Shown here piece after piece: positions 5,372-60,262 of a DNA stretch of 64,000 bases. The position numbers were made by a program, and so were the translations under genes. The DNA is from a virus (Duplodnaviria; Heunggongvirae; Uroviricota; Caudoviricetes): positions 1 to 64,000 of the IMG/VR virus record IMGVR_UViG_3300010347_002503, one strand, 5' to 3'. The notes beneath the pieces are model-generated. The model did not search any database. It saw nothing but the letters and a program-made list of their open reading frames with translations, and had not been told where the DNA came from. The first letter of the stretch is position 1; each line of letters begins with the position of its first letter.

Positions 5372-5434
5372 ATTTTTGGATTGTTTTCAGTATGGTTGGA
5401 CTATTTATAGGTTGAACTGTAATCAAAAACCTAT

Positions 5435-5932
5435 ATGTATATCATCACACCTTACGATCCATACGCTCCCAAGAAAAAGAAAACTTGGCAGGAGGAACTA
5501 TGGGAACAGCAACAAATTGCTGAAACCGAAGCTAAAATGTTGGCCGAAGCGGCTAGCAAAACACTTCCTCCAAATGCACCCGAAACTTCGGTTGCCACAG
5601 CAGGACCAATGGTGAATGCAATGGCAGGTGGTGGAGGTCAAGCAAGACCAGCATTTTATCAAAGAAACGATCTTTTGGTTGCTGGATTTACGTTTACTTC
5701 ATCGTCCAAAACTGCTCCTGCGAATATTACTTTCGTCAACACCTCCACTAATGGCGGTCCCGGTACTATGACTTATTTTTGGGATTTAGGTTCCGGAAGT
5801 TTGACTTCCACGGCAACAACTCCTCCGGTTCAAGCATATACGGTAGCAGGAACATACACCGTTACTTTGACAGTTACGGAGAATATGTATGGAACCACCA
5901 AGGTTACTATTGGAACATTTACTTTGGGATAA
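5435..5932 (+). CDS. PKD-domain protein
   Basis: C-terminal YFWDLGSGS...YTVAGTYTVTLTV matches the PKD consensus (Y.WDFGDG...Y...G.Y.V.L.V). Confidence 0.55.
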   Translation: MYIITPYDPYAPKKKKTWQEELWEQQQIAETEAKMLAEAASKTLPPNAPETSVATAGPMVNAMAGGGGQARPAFYQRNDLLVAGFTFTSSSKTAPANITFVNTSTNGGPGTMTYFWDLGSGSLTSTATTPPVQAYTVAGTYTVTLTVTENMYGTTKVTIGTFTLG

Positions 5933-5962
5933 TAGGAACAATTTTTACAGAAGATCACGAAA

Positions 5963-5990
5963 GGGGCGTCAAAAGACGCCTTTTTCTTTT
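5963..5990 (+). terminator. rho-independent terminator
   Basis: GGCGTC-AAAA-GACGCC followed by TTTTTCTTTT. Confidence 0.65.
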
Positions 5991-5998
5991 CTGTGTAT

Positions 5999-6074
5999 GG
6001 TGATAGTGGTGTAATAGTTAGCATTCCAGTTTGTGAAGCTGGCGGTGCGGGAGCATAACCCGTCTATCACCCCA
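5999..6074 (+). tRNA. tRNA-His(GUG) with G-1; non-canonical T-loop AGCATAA and D-loop without GG
   Basis: G-1 plus acceptor GTGATAG/CTATCAC, loop TTGTGAA, T GCGGG-AGCATAA-CCCGT, CCA. Confidence 0.65.
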
Positions 6075-6082
6075 ATTTTAAT

Positions 6083-6167
6083 GTCACTGTGATGGAATCG
6101 GCAGACATGGTTGCCTCAGAAGCAGCCGCCGAAAGGCGTGGGGGTTCAAATTCCCCCAGTGACACCA
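6083..6167 (+). tRNA. tRNA-Leu(CAG), class II
   Basis: D-arm TGGAATCGGCAGACA resembles the E. coli Leu D-arm; loop CTCAGAA; variable hairpin CGCC-GAAA-GGCG; TTCAAAT; CCA. Confidence 0.8.
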
Positions 6168-6177
6168 TTTTTCAAAT

Positions 6178-6259
6178 GCCAACGTGAGCCGAGTGGTTGA
6201 AGGCCCCTGTTTTGTAAACAGGAAAATCATCGTGGGTTCGAATCCCACCGTTGGCTCCA
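6178..6259 (+). tRNA. tRNA-Thr(UGU) (9-nt variable region)
   Basis: Acceptor GCCAACG/CGTTGGC; arm CCTGT-TTTGTAA-ACAGG; T GTGGG-TTCGAAT-CCCAC; CCA. Confidence 0.6.
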
Positions 6260-6468
6260 ATTTCTTAACAATCCTGAGAAGGCAATCTACTATGGTGTAT
6301 GTAGGAGCACAACAGCATGTAAGCTGGAAGAATCGGTGCAAGTCCGAATGATTGATGTAGTATCTTGATTGTAAAGATCTTGATAGACGGTGTGTACAGC
6401 CGGAACTTTAAGTGAAATCCAGAAACGTTTTTAGAAGCATCAAAAGGATCAGTAAACATGATCTTTAT

Positions 6469-6542
6469 GCCGAGTTGATGTAAGAGTAGCCTGCAAGTTT
6501 CGTAAACTTGATGCGTCGGAGCGTTACCGACACTCGGCTCCA
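6469..6542 (+). tRNA. tRNA-Thr(CGU), non-canonical T-loop AGCGTTA
   Basis: Perfect acceptor GCCGAGT/ACTCGGC; arm CAAGT-TTCGTAA-ACTTG; T GTCGG-AGCGTTA-CCGAC; CCA. Confidence 0.6.
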
Positions 6543-6592
6543 TTTGCCATATTATTGCTGCCCATTAACAATTCACAATCGTAAGAGTATTT

Positions 6593-6667
6593 GTCCCGGT
6601 ACCCAACTAGTGAAGGGGCCAGTCTGCAAAACTGGTATGGATGGAGCGTAACCATCACGGGACTCCA
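6593..6667 (+). tRNA. tRNA-Cys(GCA), non-canonical T-loop AGCGTAA
   Basis: Arm CCAGT-CTGCAAA-ACTGG; T GATGG-AGCGTAA-CCATC; CCA. Confidence 0.6.
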
Positions 6668-6721
6668 ATTTTAGAATAGTTCATCGTTTAGTAAGTCTTC
6701 TAAATATGATTTCGTCATAAA

Positions 6722-6796
6722 GGGATGGTCATCTAGCGGCTAGGATATCGCACTGTCACTGCGACAACGGGGGTTCGATTCCCCTCCATCCCGCCA
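6722..6796 (+). tRNA. tRNA-Asp(GUC)
   Basis: Perfect acceptor GGGATGG/CCATCCC; arm TCGCA-CTGTCAC-TGCGA; TTCGATT; CCA. Confidence 0.8.
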
Positions 6797-6798
6797 AT

Positions 6799-6873
6799 CA
6801 GGGTGTAGTGTAGCGGTAACACGCTCGGTTCGGGGCCGAGAGAACATGAGTTCGAATCTCATCATCCTGACCA
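6799..6873 (+). tRNA. tRNA-Pro(CGG)
   Basis: Acceptor CAGGGTG/CATCCTG; arm CTCGG-TTCGGGG-CCGAG; TTCGAAT; CCA. Confidence 0.8.
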
Positions 6874-6938
6874 ATTTCTCCCTTGTGCAAGGCAAGGGAT
6901 TGGGTGCATCAGCAAACCTCGCTGATTACCCTCTTCAC

Positions 6939-7017
6939 GTCGGTATGGTGTAATTGGCTAACACATCGCACTTTCACTGCGAAGACATGGTGGGTTCAAA
7001 TCCCCCTACCGATACCA
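6939..7017 (+). tRNA. tRNA-Glu(UUC)
   Basis: D GTGT-AATTGGCTA-ACAC; arm TCGCA-CTTTCAC-TGCGA; TTCAAAT; CCA. Confidence 0.7.
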
Positions 7018-7024
7018 GTTTTAT

Positions 7025-7110
7025 TGATCCGTGGTGTAATTGGTAACACGCCTGACTTTGACTCAGGAGACAGTTTGTTTATGTAGGTTCGACTCCTACC
7101 GGATCAGCCA
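7025..7110 (+). tRNA. tRNA-Gln(UUG) with an anomalous 15-nt unpaired variable region
   Basis: Perfect acceptor TGATCCG/CGGATCA, canonical D-arm, arm CCTGA-CTTTGAC-TCAGG, then AGACAGTTTGTTTAT before the T-arm GTAGG-TTCGACT-CCTAC; CCA. Confidence 0.6.
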
Positions 7111-7130
7111 TTTTTTGACTATTTATAGTC

Positions 7131-7904
7131 ATGAAACGAAAACTTGCTTGGAGACCTGATCTTCCCGATCAGCGAGATTATACCTTTTCTCAACTTACTA
7201 TTGATCAAAATATTCCTATCACCGCCTCAGTAACCTCAAGTCTTAGGTTCTGGTGTTCTTCTGTAGAGGACCAAGGAACTCTTGGAAGTTGCGTGAGTAA
7301 TGCAGTTGTTGGGCTTTATGAGTTCAATCGAAATTTCTCTGGTTTGGGAGGCTCAAACTATCGCAATTTCAGCCGTCTGTTTAACTATTACAACTCTCGG
7401 GTACTTTCAGAAAATGTCGATGAAGATTCCGGAACTTATATTCGAGATGCCATCAAAAGTGCTAAGTTGAATGGAATTTGCTATGAATTTCAATGGCCGT
7501 ATGACGTGAATGCTTGGATGAATGAACCTCCATTAGGATGCTATCGGGAAGCCATCAATCACAAAGTTAGCAAGTATTACAGAATTGAGACGTTGGATGA
7601 AATGAGGACATCTTTGGCAAATTTTCATCCGTTTGTTTTTGGTATTGCTGTTTACGAGTCTTTTCTGAGTGATGCTGTTGCTGCCACGGGTGATGTTCCC
7701 ATGCCCTCGTCAAGGGAACAAATGTTGGGTGGTCATGCAATGCTCTGCATAGGACACGATGATATTACTCGACGTTTCTTAGTTCGTAATTCATGGGGAA
7801 AAAATTGGGGAATTCCTTACGGAAATCTTGGAGGCTATTGTTGGATTCCTTACGATTACCTCACCGATAGAAATTTGAGTGACGACTTTTGGACTGCTTA
7901 TTGA
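7131..7904 (+). CDS. papain-like cysteine peptidase (family C1)
   Basis: Catalytic triad motifs Q-x4-C (DQGTLGSCVSNA), His (GGHAMLCIGHDD) and Asn-Trp (NSWGKNWG...GY). Confidence 0.8.
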   Translation: MKRKLAWRPDLPDQRDYTFSQLTIDQNIPITASVTSSLRFWCSSVEDQGTLGSCVSNAVVGLYEFNRNFSGLGGSNYRNFSRLFNYYNSRVLSENVDEDSGTYIRDAIKSAKLNGICYEFQWPYDVNAWMNEPPLGCYREAINHKVSKYYRIETLDEMRTSLANFHPFVFGIAVYESFLSDAVAATGDVPMPSSREQMLGGHAMLCIGHDDITRRFLVRNSWGKNWGIPYGNLGGYCWIPYDYLTDRNLSDDFWTAY

Positions 7905-7916
7905 TATTTATAAAAT

Positions 7917-8912
7917 ATGCGTCTTTCAGAACTGATTATACATAAAATTTCTCCAGATCATCTTTTTGAAACTTACACGCTTCCTGAAATGGCCGCTGGC
8001 GATGTAAAAGAAATCTCTCAAGAAGAATGGCAAGAGGGCATTCGGTTGGCGAAAGAACACAACGAGTCTCCAGCGATTGACCCACAAATCAAAGGGTTCT
8101 ATTACATTGATGTCACTGGAAGATATCAGGTGTATTTTACGCTATGGCGTTGGAAAGATGTTGATCCAACGGTTGCTCAATGGGTAAAGAACCCCATTTA
8201 CATGGGGAACATGACCACGAATTTTTTGACTTCGGTTAAAAAAGCATTGGAAAAAATTCCTCGAAGTGTCCGTTTTCAAATCATGACGGACAAAAATCGA
8301 GAAGGTCTCATTGGAAAGAATGTCGTTCGAAGTAATGAAGACATCAAATTTACTTTTGGAAAATACCGTGGAAAATCACTTGGAGAAGTTTACCTTGAAG
8401 ACCCTCGTTACATTATTTGGCTAGTTCAAAATCAAGATCCAAAATATGAGAATACGAAACTAGGTCAGGCATTAAGAGTATTCGCCAACATGTATTACGA
8501 GGAAGTCACCAAGCAAAATCAAGAAAAATACAAGGATGTTCAATACGTCGGTGCCATCGGAGACCAATATGAAGGGGAAATTGAGGTTTACAAGATTGAA
8601 ACTAAGGAGGGACGGTCGTTCAATCGATGGGAAAAGAATCCAACTTATACAGATGCCCGTGCAGTGGACGATAAAGGAAACAAGTTCATTATCTATAATC
8701 TTGATAAAGCATTTCCAAATCATATCATAACAAAAGGAACCAAGGTCAAAATTCGTGGAAAAATTAAAGACCAAAAGGAAATCCTTGGAATCAAATTCAA
8801 TCGAATCGGTTACGTCAAGGGTATTGATCCCGGCAATGCTCAACCAAAACATCCCGAACTTCAACTTCAATCACAGCCGGAAATTCCACACCCAGAAAAC
8901 CCAGAGTTTTAA
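7917..8912 (+). CDS. protein with DUF3820/QSregVF_b-like motif (FGKYRGKSLGEV..DPRYIIWL)
   Basis: FxFGKY+GK..EV...DP.Y..WL signature found in phage replication-associated proteins. Confidence 0.55.
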   Translation: MRLSELIIHKISPDHLFETYTLPEMAAGDVKEISQEEWQEGIRLAKEHNESPAIDPQIKGFYYIDVTGRYQVYFTLWRWKDVDPTVAQWVKNPIYMGNMTTNFLTSVKKALEKIPRSVRFQIMTDKNREGLIGKNVVRSNEDIKFTFGKYRGKSLGEVYLEDPRYIIWLVQNQDPKYENTKLGQALRVFANMYYEEVTKQNQEKYKDVQYVGAIGDQYEGEIEVYKIETKEGRSFNRWEKNPTYTDARAVDDKGNKFIIYNLDKAFPNHIITKGTKVKIRGKIKDQKEILGIKFNRIGYVKGIDPGNAQPKHPELQLQSQPEIPHPENPEF

Positions 8913-8914
8913 TG

Positions 8915-8985
8915 CGGTAGTCGTTCAATAGTAAGACACGACATTGCCAATGTTGAAAGGGAGTATTGCCTCCTTACCGCACCAC
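8915..8985 (+). tRNA. tRNA-Gly(GCC), non-canonical (D-loop AATAGTAA, T-arm GGAG-TATTGC-CTCC)
   Basis: Perfect acceptor GCGGTAG/TTACCGC, arm CGACA-TTGCCAA-TGTTG, CCA; lacks the GGTTC signature. Confidence 0.5.
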
Positions 8986-8986
8986 G

Positions 8987-9062
8987 CACGCATGATGTTT
9001 AACGGCAGCATATCTGCCTTCCAAGCAGATCGTGGGGGTTCAAATCCCCCTGCGTGCTCCAA
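8987..9062 (+). tRNA. tRNA-Gly(UCC)
   Basis: Perfect acceptor GCACGCA/TGCGTGC; arm TCTGC-CTTCCAA-GCAGA; T GGGGG-TTCAAAT-CCCCC; CCA. Confidence 0.8.
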
Positions 9063-9139
9063 TTTATCCCGGTATGCGTACTGCCACACAGCCAACATCC
9101 TCGCAGTAGGTGGAATTGACTAACTGGACCGGGAGAATG

Positions 9140-9214
9140 GGTTCGAAGCTTTAATAGTGAAGCACGAAGCTTTTAACTTTGAGAAGACGGAGCATTACCG
9201 TCCGAACCCACCAA
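9140..9214 (+). tRNA. tRNA-Lys(UUU), non-canonical T-loop AGCATTA
   Basis: Acceptor GGGTTCG/CGAACCC; D GCTT-TAATAGTGA-AGC; arm CGAAG-CTTTTAA-CTTTG; T GACGG-AGCATTA-CCGTC; CCA. Confidence 0.6.
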
Positions 9215-9225
9215 TTATTTTATTC

Positions 9226-9303
9226 GCCATGTAGCTCATCATTGGAAGAGCAGCGTCTTGATAAGGCGAAGGTGGCAGGTTCGAGTCCTGCCATGGCGAC
9301 CAT
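9226..9303 (+). tRNA. tRNA-Ile(GAU)
   Basis: Perfect acceptor CGCCATG/CATGGCG; D GCTC-ATCATTGGAA-GAGC; loop TTGATAA; TTCGAGT; CCA. Confidence 0.75.
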
Positions 9304-9308
9304 TTTTA

Positions 9309-9380
9309 TCGTACGGGGGGCAGAGTTTACGAGCCACCATCCATTCGGGATGGAGTAAATCAGGTGTGAGTCCTGAACGT
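9309..9380 (+). ncRNA. tRNA-like cloverleaf without canonical loops (pseudo-tRNA or structured element)
   Basis: 7-bp acceptor-like closure TCGTACG/CGTACGA; internal hairpins CCATC-CATTCGG-GATGG and TCAGG-TGTGAGT-CCTGA. Confidence 0.3.
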
Positions 9381-9408
9381 ACGACTATTTATTGACATAG
9401 ACAATACC

Positions 9409-10098
9409 ATGTTTTGTTTCTTTCATGTTACGAAAACGGCAGGAATGTCGCTTACGAAAATAGTGACAACGTGTCTTTCTCGGTCTTTTTTATACGAAAA
9501 CCACGTCGTTCTTTCAAATAATCGAACTCGATATCGTTCTCGTCCGTTGGTACAATCTCCGGACACCGATGCTGCCAAATATTTTACGGGGCATTTGGTC
9601 TATTACGGAATGCACGAAGATATCCAAAGACCGGGAAAGTACATTCTTTTTTTACGAGATCCCGTTCAGCGTATTATTTCTCTCTACCATCATGACAACA
9701 TTGAGACAGTAAGGAATGAAAGACCATTTCCGAATTTTACCGATTGGATAAAAGCGAATCTGGATAAAACCATGATTCATGGTATAACATCAGGATCGAA
9801 ATTTCCTGCAACATTAGATGGAGCAATTAAGATTTTGGAAAGGACAGCATTCATTGGTCTTCAAGAAACTTTTGCATTAGATGTTCAACAACTTTTCTAT
9901 CGGGATATTATTATTCCACACGAAAATGTAACTGAAAAACGAAAAAAAAAATATTTCGGAATAAAACTCAATGAAGTGAATAAATCGGATTATGATTTAA
10001 TGCAAATTGTTCTTGCTGATGATATCAAATTACATAAATATGCTTTGAAACTCAGAGCAGATGGTCACAACGAAGGATTTCGTTTGCCATTATTTTAA
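9409..10098 (+). CDS. carbohydrate sulfotransferase-like protein (Sulfotransfer_2/HS6ST-like)
   Basis: 5'-PSB-like motif FFHVTKTAGMSL and 3'-PB-like motif LRDPVQRIISLY. Confidence 0.55.
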   Translation: MFCFFHVTKTAGMSLTKIVTTCLSRSFLYENHVVLSNNRTRYRSRPLVQSPDTDAAKYFTGHLVYYGMHEDIQRPGKYILFLRDPVQRIISLYHHDNIETVRNERPFPNFTDWIKANLDKTMIHGITSGSKFPATLDGAIKILERTAFIGLQETFALDVQQLFYRDIIIPHENVTEKRKKKYFGIKLNEVNKSDYDLMQIVLADDIKLHKYALKLRADGHNEGFRLPLF

Positions 10099-10196
10099 CC
10101 TATTGAATGTTCTGCTAATTCCAAACTCCATTTAACCAAAAAGAAAAAAGAATAACAGATAGGAAATACAAAATAAATGTCCTATCAATTAACCAT

Positions 10197-10275
10197 GCAA
10201 GTGAAGCCATAGAGGACGGGCATCTGGCTTTTAACCAGACTATTCGTGTGGGTTCAAGTCCCACCACTTGCACCA
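10197..10275 (+). tRNA. tRNA-Lys(UUU) (canonical copy)
   Basis: Perfect acceptor GCAAGTG/CACTTGC; arm TCTGG-CTTTTAA-CCAGA; T GTGGG-TTCAAGT-CCCAC; CCA. Confidence 0.7.
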
Positions 10276-10279
10276 ATTT

Positions 10280-10314
10280 AGAGGAGTTGGGTTCAAATCC
10301 CAATATCCTCTCCA
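10280..10314 (+). ncRNA. tRNA acceptor/T-arm minihelix (top half of a tRNA only)
   Basis: AGAGGA-G-[TTGGG-TTCAAAT-CCCAA]-TA-TCCTCT-CCA; no D or anticodon arms. Confidence 0.35.
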
Positions 10315-10320
10315 CATTAT

Positions 10321-10416
10321 GGGGAGGTAGCTCAGAGGTTAGAGCGTCGAGCCAATGGTTGATTATATCTTCCAGTAACCCGAAGGTCGCAGGTTCAAAT
10401 CCTGCCCTCCCTGCCA
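10321..10416 (+). tRNA. tRNA with ~19-nt internal insertion (anticodon unresolved; possible intron or giant variable arm)
   Basis: Perfect acceptor GGGGAGG/CCTCCCT, canonical D GCTC-AGAGGTTA-GAGC and T GCAGG-TTCAAAT-CCTGC, CCA; 42 nt between D and T arms. Confidence 0.5.
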
Positions 10417-10491
10417 AATTCATGAAATCAATGACATTCATAGCATAGAAATCTCTAGCGTGATTCCGAGTGGTAACACCTATTTATAGGC

Positions 10492-10896
10492 ATGACAAAA
10501 GAAGAACTACGCCAATTGATTCAAGAAGCGATTCAGACTGCATTGAATGAAAGGCAAAATTTGGAATATTTAAGTGATGACATTCCAACTCGTACAATCA
10601 TTGGCGAAGCGTGGACTCAAATTATCCGGAAACTGGAAACTTTAATAGGAGAAGTTGAAAGTTTTAATGATTCTTTTGGATACACCATGCAGAAAATGGG
10701 AATGAAAGAAAAGCTCGCCGTTCAGTCTTACGTGGCGCAACTCCAGCAAATTGTGAAAATACTTGAGCAGCTTCATCCCGCCATCAAAATTATGACGAAA
10801 ATCGAACAATATGATGAACTGCATGAAGGTCATCCCCATGGGCGTTATGCACAGCAAGCGGGAGCAACTCCGTTTGACACGCCTCAAGATTTCTAA
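10492..10896 (+). CDS. hypothetical protein
   Basis: 134-aa ORF immediately after a CTATTTATAG motif. Confidence 0.5.
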   Translation: MTKEELRQLIQEAIQTALNERQNLEYLSDDIPTRTIIGEAWTQIIRKLETLIGEVESFNDSFGYTMQKMGMKEKLAVQSYVAQLQQIVKILEQLHPAIKIMTKIEQYDELHEGHPHGRYAQQAGATPFDTPQDF

Positions 10897-11470
10897 TGGG
10901 TTGCAAGCATTGCAGCGATGCAGCGGTCTCTTAAACCGCAGAGCACGGGGCAGCACCGTGGCGACCCACCATTACTTTTCATTTTTCATGTCTAATTCAT
11001 CACAAAATTTGGTGTGTTCATCTCATGAATATTCCGGTTCGTCTCATTTGAATTGTTTTGGATAATCAGATATGGTATGTCGTGAAGCCAAAAAACTTGG
11101 TGGATTCGACATGCGGAATACGCATGTAATAATGAAAGGTCAATACATATGAGATTATTCACTTCAATCGTTTGCACAAGATACGAACACGCCGCTTGAA
11201 AAAGGTAAACTCGTTATCGGTGAAGTTCAGGGCCGGGGTTTTCATGGTCCCGCATTTCAACATGGATGGAACCAACAAGGTCCAAGAGGTCCAATGTGGG
11301 CTCAACGTGGTCCCCGTGGTCCTATAATGTATCAAGATCTTGGGCAACAAGGTAAAGGTTGCTGCTGTCCTTGCCACGAAAAGCATGGTAAAAAACGAGG
11401 CAAGCAACATCGTCACGGACGCAAGTAAAAATATGGTCCCTGTCAATAACAGGTACTTTATAAAGGCTTG

Positions 11471-11509
11471 ACCGCTGTGCCAATCTAATAAAACAGCGGT
11501 ATCTTTATT
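11471..11509 (+). terminator. putative terminator hairpin
   Basis: ACCGCTGT...ACAGCGGT 8-bp stem followed by ATCTTTATT. Confidence 0.35.
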
Positions 11510-11582
11510 CCCTCTTGGTGTAATGGCAGCACAGAAGCCTTTGGAGCTTTTAGTTGGGGTTCAAATCCCTGAGAGGGAGCCA
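11509..11582 (+). tRNA. tRNA-Gln(UUG)
   Basis: Perfect acceptor TCCCTCT/AGAGGGA; D GTGT-AATGGCA-GCAC; loop CTTTGGA; TTCAAAT; CCA. Confidence 0.75.
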
Positions 11583-11583
11583 C

Positions 11584-11675
11584 GCAGCGGTAATCGGTGC
11601 GGTCTTCTAAGCCGTGGTCGTTAAACTCCGAAATTGGATTTGACCTTGTGGGTTCGAGCCCCACCCGCTGTGCCA
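11584..11675 (+). tRNA. atypical tRNA, 92 nt, probable Arg(UCU); D region ~6 nt, with a 32-nt insert before the T-arm
   Basis: Acceptor GCAGCGG/CCGCTGT, arm GCGGT-CTTCTAA-GCCGT, T GTGGG-TTCGAGC-CCCAC, CCA; same architecture as 5200-5285. Confidence 0.45.
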
Positions 11676-11685
11676 CTTTATATAT

Positions 11686-11762
11686 CAGGGTGTAGTTCAG
11701 CTTGGTAGAACGCAACACTGGGGGTGTTGAGGTCGTGGGTTCGAATCCCGCCATCCTGACCA
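11686..11762 (+). tRNA. tRNA-Pro(GGG)
   Basis: Acceptor CAGGGTG/CATCCTG (same as Pro-CGG); arm CAACA-CTGGGGG-TGTTG; TTCGAAT; CCA. Confidence 0.8.
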
Positions 11763-11772
11763 TTTTTTCTGA

Positions 11773-12000
11773 TTGACATGCTCCATGAAGTATGGTATGG
11801 TGTTTTTCATGAAACTGAAAAAAAGTGATATTGGCCGTTGGGCAACTGTAAAATGGGATGACGTGGGAAGAGTTGATTGTTTGATTGTTGATATCAATCA
11901 ATCGTCAAAAACACTAAGGATTTTTGAACCATTTAAGGGAACTTCAACGGTGGGTTTTTCTCAAATTACAGAACTGAGAAAGCACCAGACAGCACAATAG
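11773..12000 (+). CDS. hypothetical protein
   Basis: 75-aa ORF following the tRNA cluster; alternative start MKLKK at 11809. Confidence 0.4.
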   Translation: MTCSMKYGMVFFMKLKKSDIGRWATVKWDDVGRVDCLIVDINQSSKTLRIFEPFKGTSTVGFSQITELRKHQTAQ

Positions 12001-12326
12001 TTCTTTGATGCCCAGTTAAACCGTAAAATCGTGACGAGGATTTTCCTAGATAAAAAGCTCCCGCTAGGTTAAAAAGATGTAGGTCTTATGAGCGTAGGCT
12101 CAAAAAATGGGAGATTTTGACTCGTCTGAATATGGGTAATGATAGCAATTTCCTTGTCCCCGTGGCTGCGAGGGTACAACAAAGCCCAACGGGGTTGGTA
12201 CGTGGAAGTGGACGCACGGAAACGATACGTCGGTTGAAGTCCGACACTGGGCTCCTAATTTTGAAAGTAGAATATGTTCTTTCACAAAAACAAGTTGTTT
12301 TTCCACTTTGAGATACATTTATTGGC

Positions 12327-12851
12327 ATGAACCTGAAATATCCCAAAGAAATGTTGATCCCGCTTGTCAGGGGAAGCGTGAGTATATCCGACGTTATGAG
12401 AAAACTCGGCATTCGACGCTCTGGGGGAAGTCATTCTCACCTTTCCCGAAAACTGAAAGAGTATGAGATTGATACTTCCCATTTCACTGGCAAGACAGCG
12501 GCGAAAGGGAGACCTTCGCCTCGGAGAAAGCATTGGACCGAAATCTTAATTTTACGCACATCTGGAAAACGTCAACACGCCATCCAATTAAGAAGAGCGT
12601 TAATCGAGAGTGGTGTTCCATATCAATGCTCTGAATGTAGATCGGAGCCCGTATGGAGAAACAAAGAACTCCGATTTCAAGTTGACCATTTGAATAAAAA
12701 CTGGTTGGATGACAGGAGAGAAAATTTGAAGTTTCTTTGCCCGAATTGTCATTCACAAACGCCGGGATATAATGGTTCAAAAGGATATGCCGACATAATG
12801 GATTACAATCGGTATCAGCGAGAAAAGAGAAAACAAAAAATGGCACCGTAG
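12327..12851 (+). CDS. HNH endonuclease
   Basis: CxxC...H-N...CxxC core: CSEC...VDHLNKNWLDDRRENLKFLCPNCH. Confidence 0.75.
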   Translation: MNLKYPKEMLIPLVRGSVSISDVMRKLGIRRSGGSHSHLSRKLKEYEIDTSHFTGKTAAKGRPSPRRKHWTEILILRTSGKRQHAIQLRRALIESGVPYQCSECRSEPVWRNKELRFQVDHLNKNWLDDRRENLKFLCPNCHSQTPGYNGSKGYADIMDYNRYQREKRKQKMAP

Positions 12852-12919
12852 CCCAATTGGAAGATGGCAATACGCTTAGAACGTATGTAGTGCAGGTTCG
12901 AATCCTGTCGGTGCTACCA
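12842..12919 (+). tRNA. class-I tRNA with anticodon UAG (Leu codon CUA) but a short 5-nt variable loop
   Basis: Acceptor GGCACCG/CGGTGCT; perfect arm ATACG-CTTAGAA-CGTAT; T GCAGG-TTCGAAT-CCTGT; A73; CCA. Confidence 0.65.
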
Positions 12920-12926
12920 ATTTTAT

Positions 12927-13009
12927 GGCCGTGTGGTGTTAAGCGAAATTTGGAAGAAGCGGTGGTTTCAAAAAATACCCCCTTGGAGGTTCAAATCCTC
13001 TCACGGCTA
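12927..13009 (+). tRNA. atypical tRNA (83 nt, no encoded CCA, extended D region; possible Leu-CAA-like loop TTCAAAA)
   Basis: Acceptor GGCCGTG/CACGGCT and T GGAGG-TTCAAAT-CCTCT; interior not foldable as a standard cloverleaf. Confidence 0.4.
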
Positions 13010-13016
13010 CTACTTT

Positions 13017-13286
13017 ATGGAATTGACCTTAGACGAACGTTGTGTTACGAAGCAAGGAACTTGCTATCGTTCTTTCATTGGCGACTCGGAGACAACCAAA
13101 AAAGAAGTCATCGAGGAACAAGCCAAAATTGCCAAAGCTATCAAAGGGCAAACTGTTGCCATCAACGGAAAGGTTTCAAAAGTACTTGATGCCCGAATTG
13201 GAAAGTATTGCAACTTGGTGAATCATCGTTATTATTTGGAAATTTTAACGGACGAAGAATATGAGCGAACAAAAGAAAACAGTTGA
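13017..13286 (+). CDS. hypothetical protein
   Basis: ORF 12933..13286 trimmed to the first ATG after the tRNA at 12927-13009. Confidence 0.4.
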   Translation: MELTLDERCVTKQGTCYRSFIGDSETTKKEVIEEQAKIAKAIKGQTVAINGKVSKVLDARIGKYCNLVNHRYYLEILTDEEYERTKENS

Positions 13287-13530
13287 GCAGAACGAATTAA
13301 TTGCAACTCGTGTTCCTCCCGGTGACAAGTGGATGCTTGTTGACGACGAAAAGCGAGTTGTCCATCCGAGTCTGACTGATGTTCTTGAAGCATATTTCCG
13401 ACTTCACAAATTCGTGGGTGATTTCCGGATATCCCCGAAAGAAGGTAAGCTTTACGCCATCAAACAAGTGGAAGAAATCATTCCGCCGAAACCCGCCCGA
13501 GTCTTCAACATGTATGGTGATGGAGAATAA
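13261..13530 (+). CDS. hypothetical protein
   Basis: 89-aa ORF in a packed plus-strand series. Confidence 0.4.
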   Translation: MSEQKKTVEQNELIATRVPPGDKWMLVDDEKRVVHPSLTDVLEAYFRLHKFVGDFRISPKEGKLYAIKQVEEIIPPKPARVFNMYGDGE

Positions 13531-13533
13531 TTT

Positions 13534-14115
13534 ATGAGTATTCGACAAAAGGCCAACAAAATCAAAAAAGAGCGTTGCCGCACGTTGATTGCGGTACTCG
13601 AAAACCCCAAAACCATTGAAAATATTGGTTCAGTCATTCGAAACGTTGATGCCCTTGGGGTGAGTAAGTTATACGTAATTGACGGCTACAAATTATTACC
13701 GGATAATTGGCAGGATATGCGTGAGCGGAGAAGCTTAAATAAAATCTCTGCTTCCGCCGTCAAATGGACTTATATCCATCCTTTCAAAACCACAGCGGAA
13801 TGTATCGAACATTTGAAAAGAAAGCATTTCTTGTCGGTAGTAACATCGCCGCACGTAAAAGGTAAAAAGAACGTTTCCCTCGATGAGGCCGATTTCACAC
13901 AGCACCATCTGGCGGTCTGGTTTGGAAACGAAAGTCATGGGATTTCCGACGAAGCCGTTCAAGCTGCGGAATTCTGTGTGAGCATTCCGATGCACGGTAT
14001 CATTGAAAGCTTCAATCTGGGTACATGCTCGGGTATTGTTCTATATGAGGTCACCAAACAGCGAAGACTTTTCCGAAAAAATAAACAGCAGTGCCGAACG
14101 GCTGTAATGGACTAA
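13534..14115 (+). CDS. SpoU/TrmH-family RNA 2'-O-ribose methyltransferase
   Basis: SPOUT motifs ENIGSVIRNVDALGV, VWFGNESHGIS and IPMHGIIESFNLGTCSGIVLYEV. Confidence 0.8.
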   Translation: MSIRQKANKIKKERCRTLIAVLENPKTIENIGSVIRNVDALGVSKLYVIDGYKLLPDNWQDMRERRSLNKISASAVKWTYIHPFKTTAECIEHLKRKHFLSVVTSPHVKGKKNVSLDEADFTQHHLAVWFGNESHGISDEAVQAAEFCVSIPMHGIIESFNLGTCSGIVLYEVTKQRRLFRKNKQQCRTAVMD

Positions 14116-14139
14116 ATCCCGATTCGGCTCCATTTTTAC

Positions 14140-14328
14140 ATGACTTCATTTGTTTTCGAACGACAGAAATATTACGTCACAATGGCAGAAGCAAAGCAAA
14201 AACAACGCCAGAGAGAACTTCAAAGATTAACATCCCGACAGTGTTTCTTAGACATACCATCTGAGGAAGTTGGTAGTGAGCGGGGTGAATGGTGGACTAA
14301 ACGAGTCGGCGGTAACAAGCTCAACTAA
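14140..14328 (+). CDS. hypothetical small protein
   Basis: 62-aa ORF. Confidence 0.3.
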   Translation: MTSFVFERQKYYVTMAEAKQKQRQRELQRLTSRQCFLDIPSEEVGSERGEWWTKRVGGNKLN

Positions 14329-14366
14329 AGTTTCTCATTTCTCTCCATCCAGAATGAGAAACGAAT

Positions 14367-14442
14367 GCTCTCGTAGCTCAATTGGAAGAGTCAGTGCGTC
14401 CTAAGCACTCGGTTGCAGGTTCAAATCCTGCCGGGAGCACCA
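14367..14442 (+). tRNA. tRNA-Arg(CCU)
   Basis: Arm AGTGC-GTCCTAA-GCACT; T GCAGG-TTCAAAT-CCTGC; CCA. Confidence 0.8.
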
Positions 14443-14540
14443 ATTTCGTATGGAAAAGTATCGGAAACTATAACGTTCAAGTAACGGGTGTTTTATGATT
14501 AACGGTGCCGCTCTAACTTCGGAGGCTACTTATTCAAACT

Positions 14541-15002
14541 GTGGCCATAGGTGGATTTTTATTGACAAGTACGGTCCATTTTGCCATACTTGTTCTCTGT
14601 ATAAAAGAATCAGAAAAGAATAGTATGAGAAAGTGGATCAAACAACTGCCGGAAATGAAGAACTGCGGAGTAATAGCGGTGGCGATCATTGCGGAAGTCT
14701 CGGTTGAGGCTGCCGCTGAGGCTATAGGTAAAAAGGGGGCTACATTCACAAAAGACCTTGTCAAGGGTCTCAGAAAATTTGGATTCAAATGTCCAGACCG
14801 TTGTGTTCGAGTTAAATCAAATCAACCCCTTCCCAAATTGGCAATCGGCCATTTGTCCGACCCAAAACGAAAAAACGGCTGGCATTGGATTGTGATCGAT
14901 GGAGACAAAATCTGGGACGGTTTGTTTGGCGATCCCGATGGTAAACCGGTGTATTGGGAATCCGGGTGGAAAATCACATCGTATCTTCCTGTTACGAAAT
15001 GA
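14541..15002 (+). CDS. C39-like (papain-fold) peptidase domain protein
   Basis: Cys motif KNCGVIAVAII and His motif NGWHWIVIDG, resembling Peptidase_C39_2; N-terminal hydrophobic segment. Confidence 0.5.
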   Translation: MAIGGFLLTSTVHFAILVLCIKESEKNSMRKWIKQLPEMKNCGVIAVAIIAEVSVEAAAEAIGKKGATFTKDLVKGLRKFGFKCPDRCVRVKSNQPLPKLAIGHLSDPKRKNGWHWIVIDGDKIWDGLFGDPDGKPVYWESGWKITSYLPVTK

Positions 15003-15013
15003 TATTTATCGTG

Positions 15014-15181: not shown

Positions 15182-15214
15182 CAAATCTATTGGTTTTGAT
15201 ATAATTGCGGGTAT

Positions 15215-16689: not shown

Positions 16690-16694
16690 CCAAT

Positions 16695-50555: not shown

Positions 50556-50653
50556 CTTTCTTCGATGCATTTAGTCGGATTTGACATGGTTAATGACTGT
50601 AGATAGACCCAAATACTTTTGGGAAATAAACTTTTAATCTATTTATAAGTAAC

Positions 50654-53374: not shown

Positions 53375-53405
53375 CCACTATTTATAAGCAGAAACAATTT
53401 GACCT

Positions 53406-54428: not shown

Positions 54429-54683
54429 TTGAAACTTTATCCCGTCGAAAGAAAAATCCCAAAAGGAGAAATTACGTCGCCTATGACCGTTTCTCCAGAG
54501 TATCTCGAACAAATAAAAGCTCAACGAAAACAAGAACGGGCCAAAAGTGGGCGGGAAAGAAAACTTGTCGAAATGGAACGTTTGGGAATTGATAAACTAG
54601 AAAAGCCAGAGAAACCAGAGAAACCAGAAAAGCCAGATAAACCGGATAAACCGGATAAACTAGATAAACCGGATAAGAAATGA
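54429..54683 (+). CDS. protein with PEK/PDK tripeptide tandem repeats
   Basis: KPEKPEKPEKPDKPDKPDKLDKPDKK, encoded by 9-bp DNA repeats at 54603-54677. Confidence 0.45.
   Translation: MKLYPVERKIPKGEITSPMTVSPEYLEQIKAQRKQERAKSGRERKLVEMERLGIDKLEKPEKPEKPEKPDKPDKPDKLDKPDKK
54603..54677 (+). repeat. eight tandem 9-bp repeats (AARCCRGAW), in-frame coding
   Basis: aagccagag aaaccagag aaaccagaa aagccagat aaaccggat aaaccggat aaactagat aaaccggat. Confidence 0.7.
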
Positions 54684-54988: not shown

Positions 54989-55372
54989 AAAGTTGACTGG
55001 TTTTCTGTTTCTGTTATAGTTATACACAAAAAATAAAAATATCTTCGCTTTCAAACAAAACGTTTGGAGGCAATTACATGAATGGATTGTTTCTATACCC
55101 CAAAGTTTAATGAACCACCTACTTGCTAAAGTAGGTAGATTTTCCGGTTAGGATTTTTAAAAGTATCACAGCTATTAAATTATTTAAGAAATACCCAAAG
55201 TTAAAATCTTTTTATGGTAGATGTGGTTCTCTTTGGTCAGTAGGTAAATTTATATCCACTGTTGGCAATGTTTCTGCCGAAACAATCAAAAAATATATTG
55301 CTGACCAAAAAGGGACGTAAGATATGTTAATACAACGAGGATATAAAATTAGCTAATTTAATTTGTGAAAAA

Positions 55373-55864
55373 TTGGCTTTATTTAAAAGCAAAATATATC
55401 ACAATAAAGGGAACAATGCTTTTTATGTAAGTACTCCTGTTCACCATATTTTTACAAATATGTATGATTCGTGGTATATTGAAAAAGAGAAAATTTCCAT
55501 TCCAATTGATTGCAACCTTACAAAAACACATTTGCTTTATCTCTATATTGGAGATGGGAATTTAGCGAAAAACACAAAGAACACCTATAAAATTCATCTT
55601 TCGACAAACTGTTTTGATGATGATAGTCTAAATAAAATTGTGAGTAAATTAAAAACATTCCTTCCATTTCCAAACAGTATAAAAATATATAGCAGAAGAG
55701 ATGGTAAAGTGATAGTGATTTTAAAAAATAAAAATGTTTTATCGTTTTTAAATTATATTGGTGAATGCCCAGTTAAGGATTTAAGTATCTCTAAAAAATG
55801 GGCTTGTGGAGATGGTTCAATAGAACTGTCGTTGAAGCAAGAAAAAGAATGCTTAGTAAACTAA
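55373..55864 (+). CDS. LAGLIDADG-type homing endonuclease (single-motif), in an AT-rich insertion
   Basis: LLYLYIGDGNL LAGLIDADG-like motif; the locus has much lower GC than its flanks. Confidence 0.45.
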   Translation: MALFKSKIYHNKGNNAFYVSTPVHHIFTNMYDSWYIEKEKISIPIDCNLTKTHLLYLYIGDGNLAKNTKNTYKIHLSTNCFDDDSLNKIVSKLKTFLPFPNSIKIYSRRDGKVIVILKNKNVLSFLNYIGECPVKDLSISKKWACGDGSIELSLKQEKECLVN

Positions 55865-56924: not shown

Positions 56925-57008
56925 CATGATTACGATCAGAGAAACGTTAACCATCATTCAAATGGTAGGTATTGGTTTCGCATTCCTCTCGATTATTTTA
57001 CTTAGCTT

Positions 57009-60000
57009 ATGATATTTGAAAAACTAACATCTACCGTTTCGGATTTTACCCACATCATTCATATCGCCGACATTCACATTCGGTTGACAAAGCGTCATCA
57101 GGAATACCGAGAGGTTTTTCAGAGACTTTATAATGACGTTGCAGCGTCTCCACCAACAACAATTATTTGTGTTCTTGGCGATGTCTGTCATAGCAAATCA
57201 GATCTGAGCCCAGAATGCGTCCAGATGGTATCTGATTTTCTTTGGAATCTGGCCAATTTACGTGAAACGATTTTGATTCCCGGCAACCATGACGCTACGC
57301 TTTCAAACAAAACTCGTCTGGATAGTTTATCCCCAATTGTAGATGCACTAGCTCATCCGAAACTTCATTATTTGAAAGAAAGCAAGTTATATGGAATAGG
57401 AAATATCCTGTTCAATAACATGTGTATATTCGACCCACCCGAAAAATACATTCATGGGCAAAACATTCCAGAAGTCTATCGAAATACGTACAAACACGTC
57501 ATTGCACTGTTTCACGGCCCCGTCGATAGATCTGTAACGGACACTGGGTTTGCTATCTCAAATCCAGAGATTATGCCTCCATTATTCGATTGGCACCATA
57601 TTGCTCTTCTGGGAGATATACATCGCCGTCAAAATATACAAGAAGCAGTACCGGAAGAACATAAACCCTGTGTTCACTACCCCGGTTCTTTAATTCAACA
57701 AAACCACGGTGAACCACTTCATCCCCATGGTTATACATTATGGGATTTATCAACATATGATTACAAGTACGTGGAGGTTCCCAATGACTATGGATACTTT
57801 ACAATTGAGTTAAACGGTGCCAAAATTTTGACCGACCTTTCCGATTTACCGAAAAAAACATATCTTCGTGTTAAGTGCATGGACTCCATCGCCACGGAAA
57901 TAAAAGGAGCCGAAGCACTGGTAGGTGGTCTGACCGAAATTCATGAAATTGCTCGTTTACGTATCGAATCCGAGGCCGATAAAAAAGCCAAGGAAGCTTT
58001 GGTCTGTAAGGATGTAAAACTTTCCCAGATTGCCGACATTGATTATCAGGCCAAACTCATCACTGAGTTCCTTCAAACAAAATGTAGTCTGCTCGACCAA
58101 ACGAAAATTGACAAAATTTTGCTTATAAACCGGGATGTTAATACCGAGATTAAGCAAGATGAGTTTTCTCGAAATTTACGATGGAAACCCATTCGTTTTG
58201 AATTTGACAACATGTTTGCTTATGGTGAGGGAAATGTAATCGACTTCACACAAATGCAAGGCGTCTATGGTATTTTCGGACCAAATACTTGCGGTAAATC
58301 GAGTATTTTCTCTGCCATGTGTTTTTGTTTATTCGACAAATGGGATCGTGGTTTCAAAGCTATAGTTGCCCGAAACGTTGCTAAGCAAACGTTTCGATGT
58401 AAATTCGAATTTGAAATAAGCGGTATCCGTTATTTCATTGAGAAAAAAGGCGAAACCACCAAAACCGGAAACGTAAAGGTGGATGTCAATTTCTGGCGAG
58501 TCGTCAATGGAGTAAATGAAGACCTAACCGACCAACAAAGACGCAAAACCAATGATGTTATTCGTGAGTATATTGGAACGTTTGAGGATTTCATTCTCAC
58601 AACTCTTTCTATCCAAAATACAACAAAGAATAATATCAGCTTTATTGACATGGGCAATACCGAAAGAAAGGATTTGCTTGTACAAATCATGGGCCTGAAT
58701 ATATTTGATCGGCTATATGAAAAAGCATATGAAAAGAGCAAGGAGTTAACCACAAAACTCAAACCCCACAAAGATAAGAATTACATAAAAGATTTGGATG
58801 CCGCCGAGACCAATTTGGCGTATGCAGAGTCATCCATCAAAGATTGTCAAGCGGCGATGGATGATTTATCCAGACAGATCAAACAGGTCAATGACAATAT
58901 CGTTGAAGAGACCACCAAGCTTATTAAGTTGGACGGTGACATTCCTACCGACCTCTCGACTTTAGAGAAAAAACGAACCATTACAAAGGCGGCAATTGAA
59001 AAATTGATGTCTCAACTTGAAAAAGACAAAACCGAACTTGCGTTGAGAAAAACCAAGATGGAACGCTTGGCCGAGGAACTTTCCGAAATCATCGCCGAGG
59101 ATCTAGTCAAAGCTCACAATACCTATAATGATTATAGGAAAAAACTGGAGTTGGCTCGTCAAACATTGGAACTCAAACGAACTTTGGTAAAACATTTGTC
59201 GGCTAAACTTGAACAACTTCGGAAGAAATATAGTTATGATCCCAACTGTAAATTTTGCGTTGATAATCTTGCCGAAAAGAACGCCGACGCATCTAAGACT
59301 GAAAAAGACCTTCATTCTGAAACCGAAGCAATGAATGCCTCTGAGGTTTCTGTTAAAGAACTCACAACAAAATTAGAAGAATGGGCATGGGTTGACGTGG
59401 CATACCAAAACTATACCAAGCTTCTAAACGATCACAGCAAAGCCAAAGACGAATTTACCACTTTGAATACAAAGGTTTTGGTAAATGAAAAAGAAGCCGA
59501 AAAACTGACTCAAGCTCTCTTAGAAGTCGAAAAGAAAATCGAATTGTATCACCGAAATCAGGTAGCGTTAGACAATAATCAGAAGGTCAACATGACCATT
59601 TTGAGTTACAAAAATGCTCTGAGCAAACTAGAAGGAAACTACAATGTTCAAAACAAGAGGTTATTACAACTCATAGGAGAGCGTGAAGTTTTCAAGAAAC
59701 AAATAGCCGACATTAATGCCACTATTTTGGACCTTATTGAAACCGAAGAAACCCGAGAACTTTATGAATACTACTGCAAAGCAGTTGGTCGCAATGGTAT
59801 TCCATATCAGGTTATTATAAACACCATTCCTGAAATCACCAAAGAAATCAATTCCATTCTTACCCAGACTTCGGAGTTTACGGTAGAAATTGAAACAGAC
59901 GAGAAAAACCTAATGCCTTATGTAAACTACGAAACGAAGGGTCGCTGGCCAATCGAAATGACCAGTGGATTTGAACGATTTGTTGTTTCTATTGCCATTC

Positions 60001-60236
60001 GGGTTGCATTAAACAATATTACCAATCTCCCTCGTACAAACATGCTATTAATTGACGAAGGTTGGGGTGCGATGGATAAAGAAAATAAAGCCAATGTTCC
60101 TATGCTTTTGGCGGCATTGAAACATCACTATGACTTCGTTATTCTGATATCCCACTTGGATGAACTTAGGGACTTTGTTGATAGTCAGATAGAAATAACA
60201 AAGGTAGGGGTTTTTTCTAAAGTAGTCTTCGAGTAA
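57009..60236 (+). CDS. fused Mre11-Rad50 (SbcD-SbcC) recombination nuclease/ATPase
   Basis: N-terminal phosphoesterase motifs IIHIADIHI, GDVCH and GNHD; Walker A GPNTCGKSSIF; coiled-coil with a CKFC zinc hook; D-loop LLIDEGWGAMD. Confidence 0.8.
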   Translation: MIFEKLTSTVSDFTHIIHIADIHIRLTKRHQEYREVFQRLYNDVAASPPTTIICVLGDVCHSKSDLSPECVQMVSDFLWNLANLRETILIPGNHDATLSNKTRLDSLSPIVDALAHPKLHYLKESKLYGIGNILFNNMCIFDPPEKYIHGQNIPEVYRNTYKHVIALFHGPVDRSVTDTGFAISNPEIMPPLFDWHHIALLGDIHRRQNIQEAVPEEHKPCVHYPGSLIQQNHGEPLHPHGYTLWDLSTYDYKYVEVPNDYGYFTIELNGAKILTDLSDLPKKTYLRVKCMDSIATEIKGAEALVGGLTEIHEIARLRIESEADKKAKEALVCKDVKLSQIADIDYQAKLITEFLQTKCSLLDQTKIDKILLINRDVNTEIKQDEFSRNLRWKPIRFEFDNMFAYGEGNVIDFTQMQGVYGIFGPNTCGKSSIFSAMCFCLFDKWDRGFKAIVARNVAKQTFRCKFEFEISGIRYFIEKKGETTKTGNVKVDVNFWRVVNGVNEDLTDQQRRKTNDVIREYIGTFEDFILTTLSIQNTTKNNISFIDMGNTERKDLLVQIMGLNIFDRLYEKAYEKSKELTTKLKPHKDKNYIKDLDAAETNLAYAESSIKDCQAAMDDLSRQIKQVNDNIVEETTKLIKLDGDIPTDLSTLEKKRTITKAAIEKLMSQLEKDKTELALRKTKMERLAEELSEIIAEDLVKAHNTYNDYRKKLELARQTLELKRTLVKHLSAKLEQLRKKYSYDPNCKFCVDNLAEKNADASKTEKDLHSETEAMNASEVSVKELTTKLEEWAWVDVAYQNYTKLLNDHSKAKDEFTTLNTKVLVNEKEAEKLTQALLEVEKKIELYHRNQVALDNNQKVNMTILSYKNALSKLEGNYNVQNKRLLQLIGEREVFKKQIADINATILDLIETEETRELYEYYCKAVGRNGIPYQVIINTIPEITKEINSILTQTSEFTVEIETDEKNLMPYVNYETKGRWPIEMTSGFERFVVSIAIRVALNNITNLPRTNMLLIDEGWGAMDKENKANVPMLLAALKHHYDFVILISHLDELRDFVDSQIEITKVGVFSKVVFE

Positions 60237-60262
60237 AATTACCAGCCATGCTATTTATAGGC

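Follow-up and report, generated by a model that had tools for sequence, protein, structure and literature searches.

The late mRNAs of bacteriophage T4 carry leaders with Shine-Dalgarno (SD) sites. The promoters from which they are made consist of an AT-rich 8-bp element of the −10 type, TATAAATA, which occupies positions −13 to −6 (PMC1524935), has no −35 box and is read by the phage sigma factor gp55 with gp33 and the sliding clamp gp45. Aeromonas phage Aeh1 has a variant late promoter, CTAAATA from position −12, together with a divergent gp55 (PMC1524935), and is a precedent for late-promoter word and gp55 drifting together in T4-like phages. Here a repeated motif was analyzed in a 64,000-nucleotide stretch of DNA from an uncultured tailed phage (positions 1 to 64,000 of IMG/VR record IMGVR_UViG_3300010347_002503), the whole of which is called the window below. 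The motif is a word of 8 to 10 bases with the core 8-mer TATTTATA, the exact 10-mer CTATTTATAG and the looser form [C/A]TATTTAT[A/T/G] (MTATTTATD), and most of its copies lie just ahead of start codons. It is probably a variant of the T4-type late promoter that is read by a gp55-like sigma factor of the phage and gives rise to leaderless or nearly leaderless mRNAs.

A repeated word ahead of gene starts

Exact copies of CTATTTATAG occur five times in the window, all on the plus strand, against 0.07 expected for both strands together. None of 100 shuffles of the window reached five copies. The core TATTTATA is found 12 times on the plus strand and never on the minus strand, and the looser form 17 times on the plus and twice on the minus strand (6.1 expected for both). 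Every protein and tRNA gene of the window is located on the plus strand. Fifteen of the 17 plus-strand sites of the looser form fall within the non-coding 12.8% of the window (binomial P = 4e-12). A window-wide search with a positional test tied the sites to gene starts: 14 of the 17 sites end 0–25 nt upstream of a gene start (P = 1e-19) and eight end 2–5 nt upstream (P = 3e-15), where the starts at 30715, 33134 and 60263 were picked partly with the motif in mind and N-terminal conservation in relatives backs those at 30715 and 33134. Counts, shuffles and position statistics exclude a chance origin of the motif.

An earlier sequence-only reading had listed eight sites with the ATG codons that follow them (5435, 7131, 10492, 18979, 30715, 50654, 53406 and 60263), and all of these are real and lie on the plus strand. 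Five of them are exact CTATTTATAG: 5401–5410, 24 nt before the ATG at 5435 of a gene for a PKD-domain protein and 30 nt past the end of a tRNA gene; 7119–7128, 2 nt before the ATG at 7131 of a peptidase-like protein and 9 nt past a tRNA gene; 10480–10489, 2 nt before the ATG at 10492; 18965–18974, 4 nt before the ATG at 18979 of an fn3-like protein; and 60251–60260, 2 nt before the ATG at 60263 of a 925-aa virion-protein-like product and within the loop of a hairpin at 60244–60268. The sites at 50639–50648 and 53378–53387 read CTATTTATAA (CTATTTATAAG in the form first listed) and are positioned 5 nt before the ATG at 50654 of a 906-aa protein and 18 nt before the ATG at 53406, respectively. 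The site at 30701–30710 is the variant CTATTTATTT (CTATTTATTTG in the first list); it is preceded by a hairpin and lies 4 nt before the ATG at 30715, where the gene directly after the sigma gene starts.

The list was incomplete, as further plus-strand sites were found at 7904, 9385, 20350, 23547, 28187 and 33112 and also at 27531, 34199 and, in weak form, 12315. ATATTTATAA is present at 7904–7913, 3 nt before the ATG at 7917 (product with an ExoX-like C-terminal domain), and at 28187–28196, 3 nt before the ATG at 28200 of a conserved 341-aa protein beginning with MKDK. ATATTTATAC is located at 20350–20359, in the loop of a hairpin at 20344–20370 and 3 nt before the ATG at 20363, and again at 34199–34208 inside a gp25-like gene, ~95 nt from the next gene. 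CTATTTATAC at 33112–33121 lies 12 nt before the ATG at 33134, the probable true start of a gene that has been called at 33097. Variants occur at 9385–9394 (CTATTTATTG, 14 nt before the ATG at 9409), at 23547–23556 (CTATTTATGA, 11 nt before the ATG at 23568 and 27 nt past a terminator at 23491–23520, a layout kept in the relatives L016 and L041) and at 27531–27539 (ATATTTATT, intergenic, 98 nt from the Hsp20 gene at 27638). The weak variant ACATTTATT at 12315–12323, 3 nt before the ATG at 12327 of an HNH endonuclease gene, is a candidate only.

Conservation was analyzed in 17 relatives, all uncultured phages with GC contents of 29–48%. These are 14 IMG/VR records with 33–73% identity in the 341-aa protein of 28200 and three contigs that were found via sigma homologues, namely L042 (101–102 kb), L041 (380 kb) and L040 (the 401-kb contig GCA_902730405.1). 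The motif recurs at the same orthologous positions in these phages despite diverging flanks. The best-conserved orthologous site is the one before the 341-aa gene (28187), which is present in 11 of the 14 IMG/VR relatives and in L040 and L042. An intrinsic terminator with a 9-bp stem and a T-run is located on the plus strand at 28147–28168, 18 nt upstream of this site, and its hairpin is kept in relatives through compensatory changes. The order ahead of the 341-aa gene is hairpin, T-run, 13–17 variable nucleotides, [C/A]TATTTATA, 3–6 nt and ATGAAAGA. The motif before the gene following the sigma gene likewise comes after a hairpin and is kept in most relatives, including Flavobacterium phage vB_FspM_immuto (immuto; L032, position 38841) and L028. 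Before the gene at 33134 the spacing is 3–5 nt in most relatives and 12–14 nt in the window, L016 and L041, which have the leader cacaacacacat in common. At the internal copy at 34199 the codons GAT ATT TAT A.. for D-I-Y are free of synonymous changes in 14 of 15 relatives, whereas neighbouring Asp and Tyr codons vary synonymously. This pattern points to selection on the DNA word itself, and the copy is a probable internal promoter. In the window and 14 relatives taken together, 30 of 91 plus-strand hits but only 2 of 25 minus-strand hits lie at most 8 nt before an ATG that opens an open reading frame (ORF) of at least 50 codons.

Alignment of 64 non-redundant sites revealed C (33) or A (27), rarely T (4), before the motif, and A (30), G (12), C (10) or T (12) after the 8-mer. 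No −35-like element was detected upstream in these aligned sites, where no column exceeded 0.36 bit. The same counts bear on the possibility that the motif is the site of a DNA-binding regulator of phage or host, acting as activator or repressor. The five copies of CTATTTATAG are near-palindromic (CTAT-TT-ATAG), and some have extended symmetry, for example GACTATTTATAGTC at 7117–7130, as would suit such a protein. The palindromy is, however, not conserved according to the flanking-base counts, and all 12 copies of the core on the coding strand have TT and none has AA at the centre, which indicates that orientation matters. A promoter would still be needed nearby and none is seen between terminator and ATG, so that this explanation is very unlikely.

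Many copies are positioned 10–20 nt downstream of an intrinsic terminator. This position also bears on an RNA processing site, at which an endoribonuclease would cut long transcripts so that mRNAs begin near the ATG. AU-rich single-stranded sites are typical endonuclease targets, and in the tRNA region, where processing happens anyway, the motif follows tRNA genes. Sites right after strong terminators nevertheless argue for new initiation, and the co-occurrence of a gp55-like sigma with a word that is two bases away from the gp55 promoter is more simply explained by transcription. Processing is accordingly the least probable of the explanations considered.

A gp55-like sigma protein and the T4 late word

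The plus-strand gene at 29777–30649, 1.5 kb from one of the best motif sites, encodes a sigma-like protein of 290 aa with a gp55-like sigma region 2 domain at about residues 58–168 and an extra C-terminal four-helix domain at residues 187–279. Its AlphaFold (AF2) model reaches a pLDDT of ~90 over residues 60–170. Comparison of the fold of this predicted model gave T4 gp55, the late sigma factor, as the best match, followed by other sigma factors. Model and family alignment together point to a sigma region 2 fold with the residues for recognition of a −10 element. The protein has more than 1,250 homologue clusters, of which the top 120 are 53–99% identical to it and include none with a Pfam domain or a name, and in the family alignment the lysine-rich tail is variable and two helical domains are strongly conserved. 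The gene was found in every relative covering this region, with 51–72% identity across these phages. Homologues with 30–34% identity are present in immuto, in Microcystis phage Mel-JY01 and in an uncultured 484-kb phage, all of them annotated as hypothetical. A pattern scan with the sigma alignment found no relatives in 185,579 bacterial and archaeal species genomes of GTDB. Upstream, at 29318–29500, the first gene of the sigma operon is a very acidic ORF of 60 aa with orthologues in all relatives examined; its product is a candidate gp33-like or AsiA-like sigma partner.

The cryo-EM structure of the T4 late complex showed that pockets of gp55 take up A−12, which is stacked on Y97, A−9 (N13 and H95) and A−8 (T99) (PMC7892883). 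For comparison, a gp55 family alignment was built from T4 and phages of Aeromonas, Vibrio, Acinetobacter, Stenotrophomonas, Methylophilales and Synechococcus. In the low-confidence alignment produced by hhalign, F86, Y97 and T99 of gp55 are paired with F126, Y145 and S147 of the 290-aa protein, and H95, a residue of the −9 pocket, is paired with F143. Y145 and S147 are invariant in the 290-aa family, and position 126 is F or Y. Aligned to positions −13 to −6, the window motif (T A T T T A T A) keeps A at −12 and −8 and is changed at −10 and −9. The one differing pocket residue, H95 to F, would thus fall in the −9 pocket and match the changed −9 base.

The motif and its setting share several features with the T4 late system: an AT-rich 8-bp element of the −10 type without a −35 box, A at the equivalents of −12 and −8, which are bases that gp55 puts into pockets, a position upstream of several virion-like genes in a T4-related myovirus (T4-type portal, gp25-like and Baseplate_J-like proteins), a phage-encoded sigma for which gp55 is the best structural match of the predicted model, and a separate class of host-type, probably early promoters. 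The differences concern the central bases, which are TT instead of AA, the base before the motif, which is C or A, and the spacing, since most copies lie 3–6 nt from an ATG and the mRNAs would be leaderless. The sigma differs from T4 gp55 in its size of 290 aa, its lysine-rich N-terminal tail and its second helical domain, and it is without an obvious equivalent of the C-terminal clamp-binding tail of gp55. Compared to Aeh1, which alters the first positions and keeps the AAA core, the window motif alters the core (AA to TT) and its sigma is far more divergent.

TATTTATA matches TATAAATA at six of eight positions. TATAAATA is the reverse complement of TATTTATA and occurs in the window 12 times on the minus strand and not at all on the plus, coding strand. 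This confirms one half of the statement that T4-type late promoters are not seen here; the other half, which set the motif apart from them, was not upheld. As only two central bases differ, as neither word has a −35 box and as a gp55-like sigma is encoded nearby, the motif is best regarded as a close variant of the T4 late promoter. In the proposed mechanism [C/A]TATTTAT[A/T/G], which departs from TATAAATA in two bases, would act as a −10-type element with no accompanying −35 box and would be read by the RNA polymerase core of the host carrying the phage sigma from 29777–30649. Transcription dependent on this sigma would then be sensitive to a change of TATTTATA to TATGGATA.

Start-codon geometry

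The distance between the end of the 8-mer and the ATG in the 64 non-redundant sites is 3 nt in nine cases, 4 nt in 11, 5 nt in 16, 6 nt in five, 12 nt in four and 15–25 nt in 14. Thus 41 of the 64 sites have a spacing of 3–6 nt with a mode of 5. Longer distances also occur: in L009 the ATG of the portal gene is ~49 nt away, and the Hsp20 gene lies ~98 nt from its copy. If the motif is placed at −13 to −6 as in T4, position +1 is the sixth nucleotide past it, and with a spacing of 5 nt it coincides with the A of the ATG. At most sites transcription would therefore begin on this A or within 1–2 nt of it, and the remaining sites would give short leaders of ~7–20 nt or longer ones of ~45–95 nt. 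At spacings of 3, 4 and 6 nt the A is 1–2 nt away from the T4 +1, which may be within the flexibility of start-site choice, if such flexibility is assumed. The ATG codons preceded by the motif are likely to be the true starts, because N-termini are conserved from the first Met onwards (MKDK... in all 341-aa orthologues).

The leaderless arrangement fits a phage that has essentially no SD sequences. SD-like 4-mers at positions −22 to −1 were found in 11 of 69 genes, compared to a background of 11%, and in none of 11 motif-proximal genes. The start codons 3–6 nt past the motif comprise 41 ATG, three TTG and no GTG. Neither the absence of SD sequences nor the use of ATG discriminates between motif genes and others, as the whole phage is without SD and uses ATG nearly everywhere. 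An SD-independent host is implied, yet the host-type promoters of the phage are canonical TTGACA/TATAAT and not of the Bacteroidota type. A pyrimidine at −1 of the ATG was considered as a start-site signature and dropped, since ~75% of all window genes have T there.

Leaderless mRNAs are known for lambda cI transcribed from PRM and for many genes of Actinobacteria and Deinococcus. They have also been described in mycobacteria (PMC4633059). The sites analyzed here resemble known leaderless genes in having a −10 element ~5–8 nt before the ATG, no SD sequence and an ATG start. They differ in that a phage-specific sigma would produce the layout, that it is conserved gene by gene in a large clade of phages and that it is known here from sequence geometry.

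The same spacing data are relevant to a translation-initiation signal in the mRNA, which would replace SD pairing in an SD-less host while transcripts start further upstream. The sequence-only reading had offered two alternatives, a phage-specific promoter from which leaderless or near-leaderless mRNAs start and an element of this kind. The latter would suit a phage without SD sequences in which most copies lie 3–6 nt before an ATG, and the motif is AU-rich like translation enhancers. On the other hand, its distance to the ATG varies (3–6, 12, 15–25, ~49 and ~98 nt), about 50 of 69 genes are presumably translated although they lack the motif, and a conserved intragenic copy lies ~95 nt from the next start. 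The many copies 10–20 nt past a terminator leave no room for an upstream promoter, and an exact word of 7–8 nt across 29–48% GC suggests recognition by a protein on DNA. Variable spacing and post-terminator position are poorly accommodated by a translation element, which is quite unlikely. Of the two alternatives the promoter is favoured, based on strand specificity, post-terminator position, variable distance to the ATG, orthologous conservation and the co-occurring gp55-like sigma.

Transcripts of the T4 genes e and soc that are read through from early promoters fold into hairpins which hide the translation start and in which the late promoters are embedded. Two sites of the window are comparable. 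In the stable hairpins at 20344–20370 (z = −4.2) and 60244–60268 (z = −3.0) the motif is located in the loop and the ATG is paired in the stem as part of the 3′ arm. In contrast to e and soc, this applies to only two of ~15 sites, and it is the start codon itself that is hidden and not an SD site. Read-through RNA would conceal the start codon in these hairpins, and a transcript begun after the motif would lose the 5′ arm and expose it; the two structures may thus block translation of read-through transcripts. A general RNA-structure element was rejected as an explanation of the motif, since only two of 15 sites fold significantly and Rfam finds tRNAs only.

Public gene calls set several starts of motif genes too far upstream or on a codon other than ATG, namely at TTG 30664 instead of 30715, at 33097 instead of 33134 and at 60248 instead of 60263, and the same is seen at L041 6434 and L040 1292. 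In relatives some called GTG starts fall inside the terminator hairpin, and the ATG after the motif matches the conserved N-terminus.

Several observations weigh against a gp55-like sigma reading the motif as a late promoter. Searches of Pfam, PHROGs and PDB with the sequence or profile of the 290-aa protein gave no match, so that it was identified through fold comparison only, and Foldseek against PDB returned non-significant matches (E > 0.1), mostly to sigma factors. The hhalign comparison of its family with gp55 is weak (probability 9.8%, E = 0.0033), though colinear. The C-terminal domain, which is absent from gp55, could read an undetected upstream element. At spacings of 3 and 4 nt (20 of the 64 sites) strict T4 geometry would move +1 to the T or G of the start codon, so that the start must be 1–2 nt nearer to the motif there than in T4. 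Among distant, cultured phages with the sigma, immuto carries TATTTATA seven times on the plus and four times on the minus strand in 50 kb, which is a weak signal, and Mel-JY01 shows no enrichment of the motif in 8.7 kb. Use of the canonical TATAAATA by immuto at the orthologous site was considered and rejected: in its 50-kb sample several genes are preceded by TATTTATA(TA), and a comparably placed TATAAATA occurs just once. Finally, copies are located ahead of virion-like genes (28200, 33134, 50654, 60263 and, in L009, the portal gene) but also ahead of non-structural genes among the tRNAs (5435, 7131, 7917 and 10492), and 'late' is not established. From the layout we infer promoter activity, the link between sigma and motif, the exact start nucleotide and the timing, which may be late or middle.

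Proposed promoter classes, phage context and implications

Besides the motif, the window harbors promoters of the host type. The near-consensus sigma-70-type promoter TTGAC[AT]-N16-TATA[AG]T is found six times on the plus strand, at 3735–3764, 3840–3867, 15178–15205, 18199–18226, 20628–20655 and 54993–55020, and never on the minus strand. Those at 15178 and 18199 and a looser one at 19810 lie 5–20 nt ahead of tRNA genes. They probably represent the early class read by the host, and beside them the motif would be a second promoter class. Another promoter of this type, TTGACT-N17-TATGGT, is positioned at 29235–29263 (plus strand). It immediately follows the stop codon of the 341-aa gene and precedes the operon of two small ORFs and the sigma gene, and 10 of 12 relatives have TTGACA-N17-TAnnnT in this position. 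The host holoenzyme would thus transcribe tRNAs and sigma operon first, and the phage sigma would then direct transcription at TATTTATA sites (host sigma, phage sigma, motif genes).

The presence of these promoters also bears on a reading of the motif by a sigma factor of the host, housekeeping or alternative, instead of the 29777–30649 protein. Some bacterial promoters consist of a −10 element only, and a sigma of the host may have a fitting specificity. The link between phage sigma and motif, moreover, is one of co-occurrence, which counts in favour of a host factor and against the phage protein. However, the evident host-type promoters of this phage are canonical, with TTGACA-N16/17-TATAAT-like sequences, and TATTTA does not end in T as the sigma-70 −10 hexamer does. 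Because it is a poor −10 box and has no −35 partner, the primary sigma of the host is an unlikely reader. The same motif is found across GC contents of 29–48%, in different habitats and probably different hosts, together with a phage sigma that is 51–72% identical. A host sigma is therefore an unlikely reader, and recognition by the phage sigma is preferred.

Two further promoter types were tried and rejected. An archaeal TATA box lies ~25 nt from the start and was ruled out by the spacing. The TAnnTTTG of a Bacteroidota-type promoter (−33 TTTG / −7 TAnnTTTG) is not enriched, with 30 copies on the plus and 42 on the minus strand, mostly inside genes. A different and longer repeated word, approximately ATATTTAGGTATCAATAATTAAAA, precedes at least 10–14 small ORFs in immuto (L032, 66.7–76 kb of the record), where it may be an early promoter class. 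No published description of the TATTTATA motif was found in the literature on phage promoters, leaderless late promoters, immuto and Mel-JY01.

The window matches the 93.4-kb contig ena:ERZ27257402:k141_650656, and identical pieces are present in several JGI, ENA and Logan samples. Searches of 50,697 deposited phage genomes with 7 kb of the window (megablast) and with a 561-aa protein (tblastn) revealed no close relative. Genes for PhoH, Hsp20, an HPr-like protein, an SbcCD-like nuclease and a primase are present, as is a baseplate module that includes a gp25-like protein and a weak Baseplate_J match. An intein-containing large terminase and a T4-type portal are encoded just past the end of the window. 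In L009, which covers part of the ~35 kb of this genome beyond the window, both the terminase (7882–13359, 1825 aa) and the portal (13436–16447, 1003 aa) contain inteins with Intein_splicing, LAGLIDADG or HNH domains. Based on the portal, the nearest cultured phages are Mel-JY01 (53%) and immuto (50%) and, more distantly, Rhodothermus phage RM378. Gene content, the T4-type portal and its nearest cultured matches indicate a distant T4-like myovirus. Gene order is kept in phages of ~100 kb to more than 400 kb (L040, L041 and L042) and runs from PhoH through two ORFs, the 341-aa protein and two small ORFs to the sigma, continuing with three ORFs (126–148, 492–656 and 231–260 aa), the gp25-like protein and a 659-aa baseplate protein.

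The region 4277–21930 contains 37 tRNA genes according to ARAGORN, to which Rfam adds 8914–8981, 9139–9210 and 20257–20327. Scattered between the tRNA genes are small ORFs that each have a TATTTATA motif of their own, and an unusually long tRNA-like gene at 10321–10416 has no assigned anticodon. Homing-endonuclease genes of the LAGLIDADG and HNH types are located at 55460–55864 and 12327–12851, respectively. A small ORF ends in PEKPEKPDKPDK, which is encoded by a tandem repeat at 54620–54683, and the 246-aa ORF at 39084–39824 overlaps the start of the 2011-aa ORF at 39754–45789 by 71 nt.

A wider claim can be put forward only tentatively: a very large, T4-related and mostly metagenomic group of phages may have replaced the T4 late system with a two-domain, gp55-like sigma that reads TATTTATA, with transcription from the start codon and leaderless late mRNAs as the rule. 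The phages that carry this sigma comprise more than 1,250 sigma clusters, have genomes of ~100 kb to more than 400 kb and are known almost entirely from metagenomes. The sigma family, which is labelled 'hypothetical protein' everywhere including immuto and Mel-JY01, could now be annotated, and the motif allows mis-set gene starts to be corrected (60263, 30715 and 33134). If the leaderless reading is true, this would be an example of co-evolution of a gp55-type sigma and its promoter, in which the pockets for A−12 and A−8 are kept and the −9 pocket is changed, and a rare instance in which phage late genes are systematically expressed from leaderless mRNAs. The choice of promoter would then be coupled directly to translation in hosts that do not use SD pairing. 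Promoter word, probable sigma and the host-type promoter driving the sigma together provide a testable regulatory code for a widespread and almost entirely uncultured group of phages.

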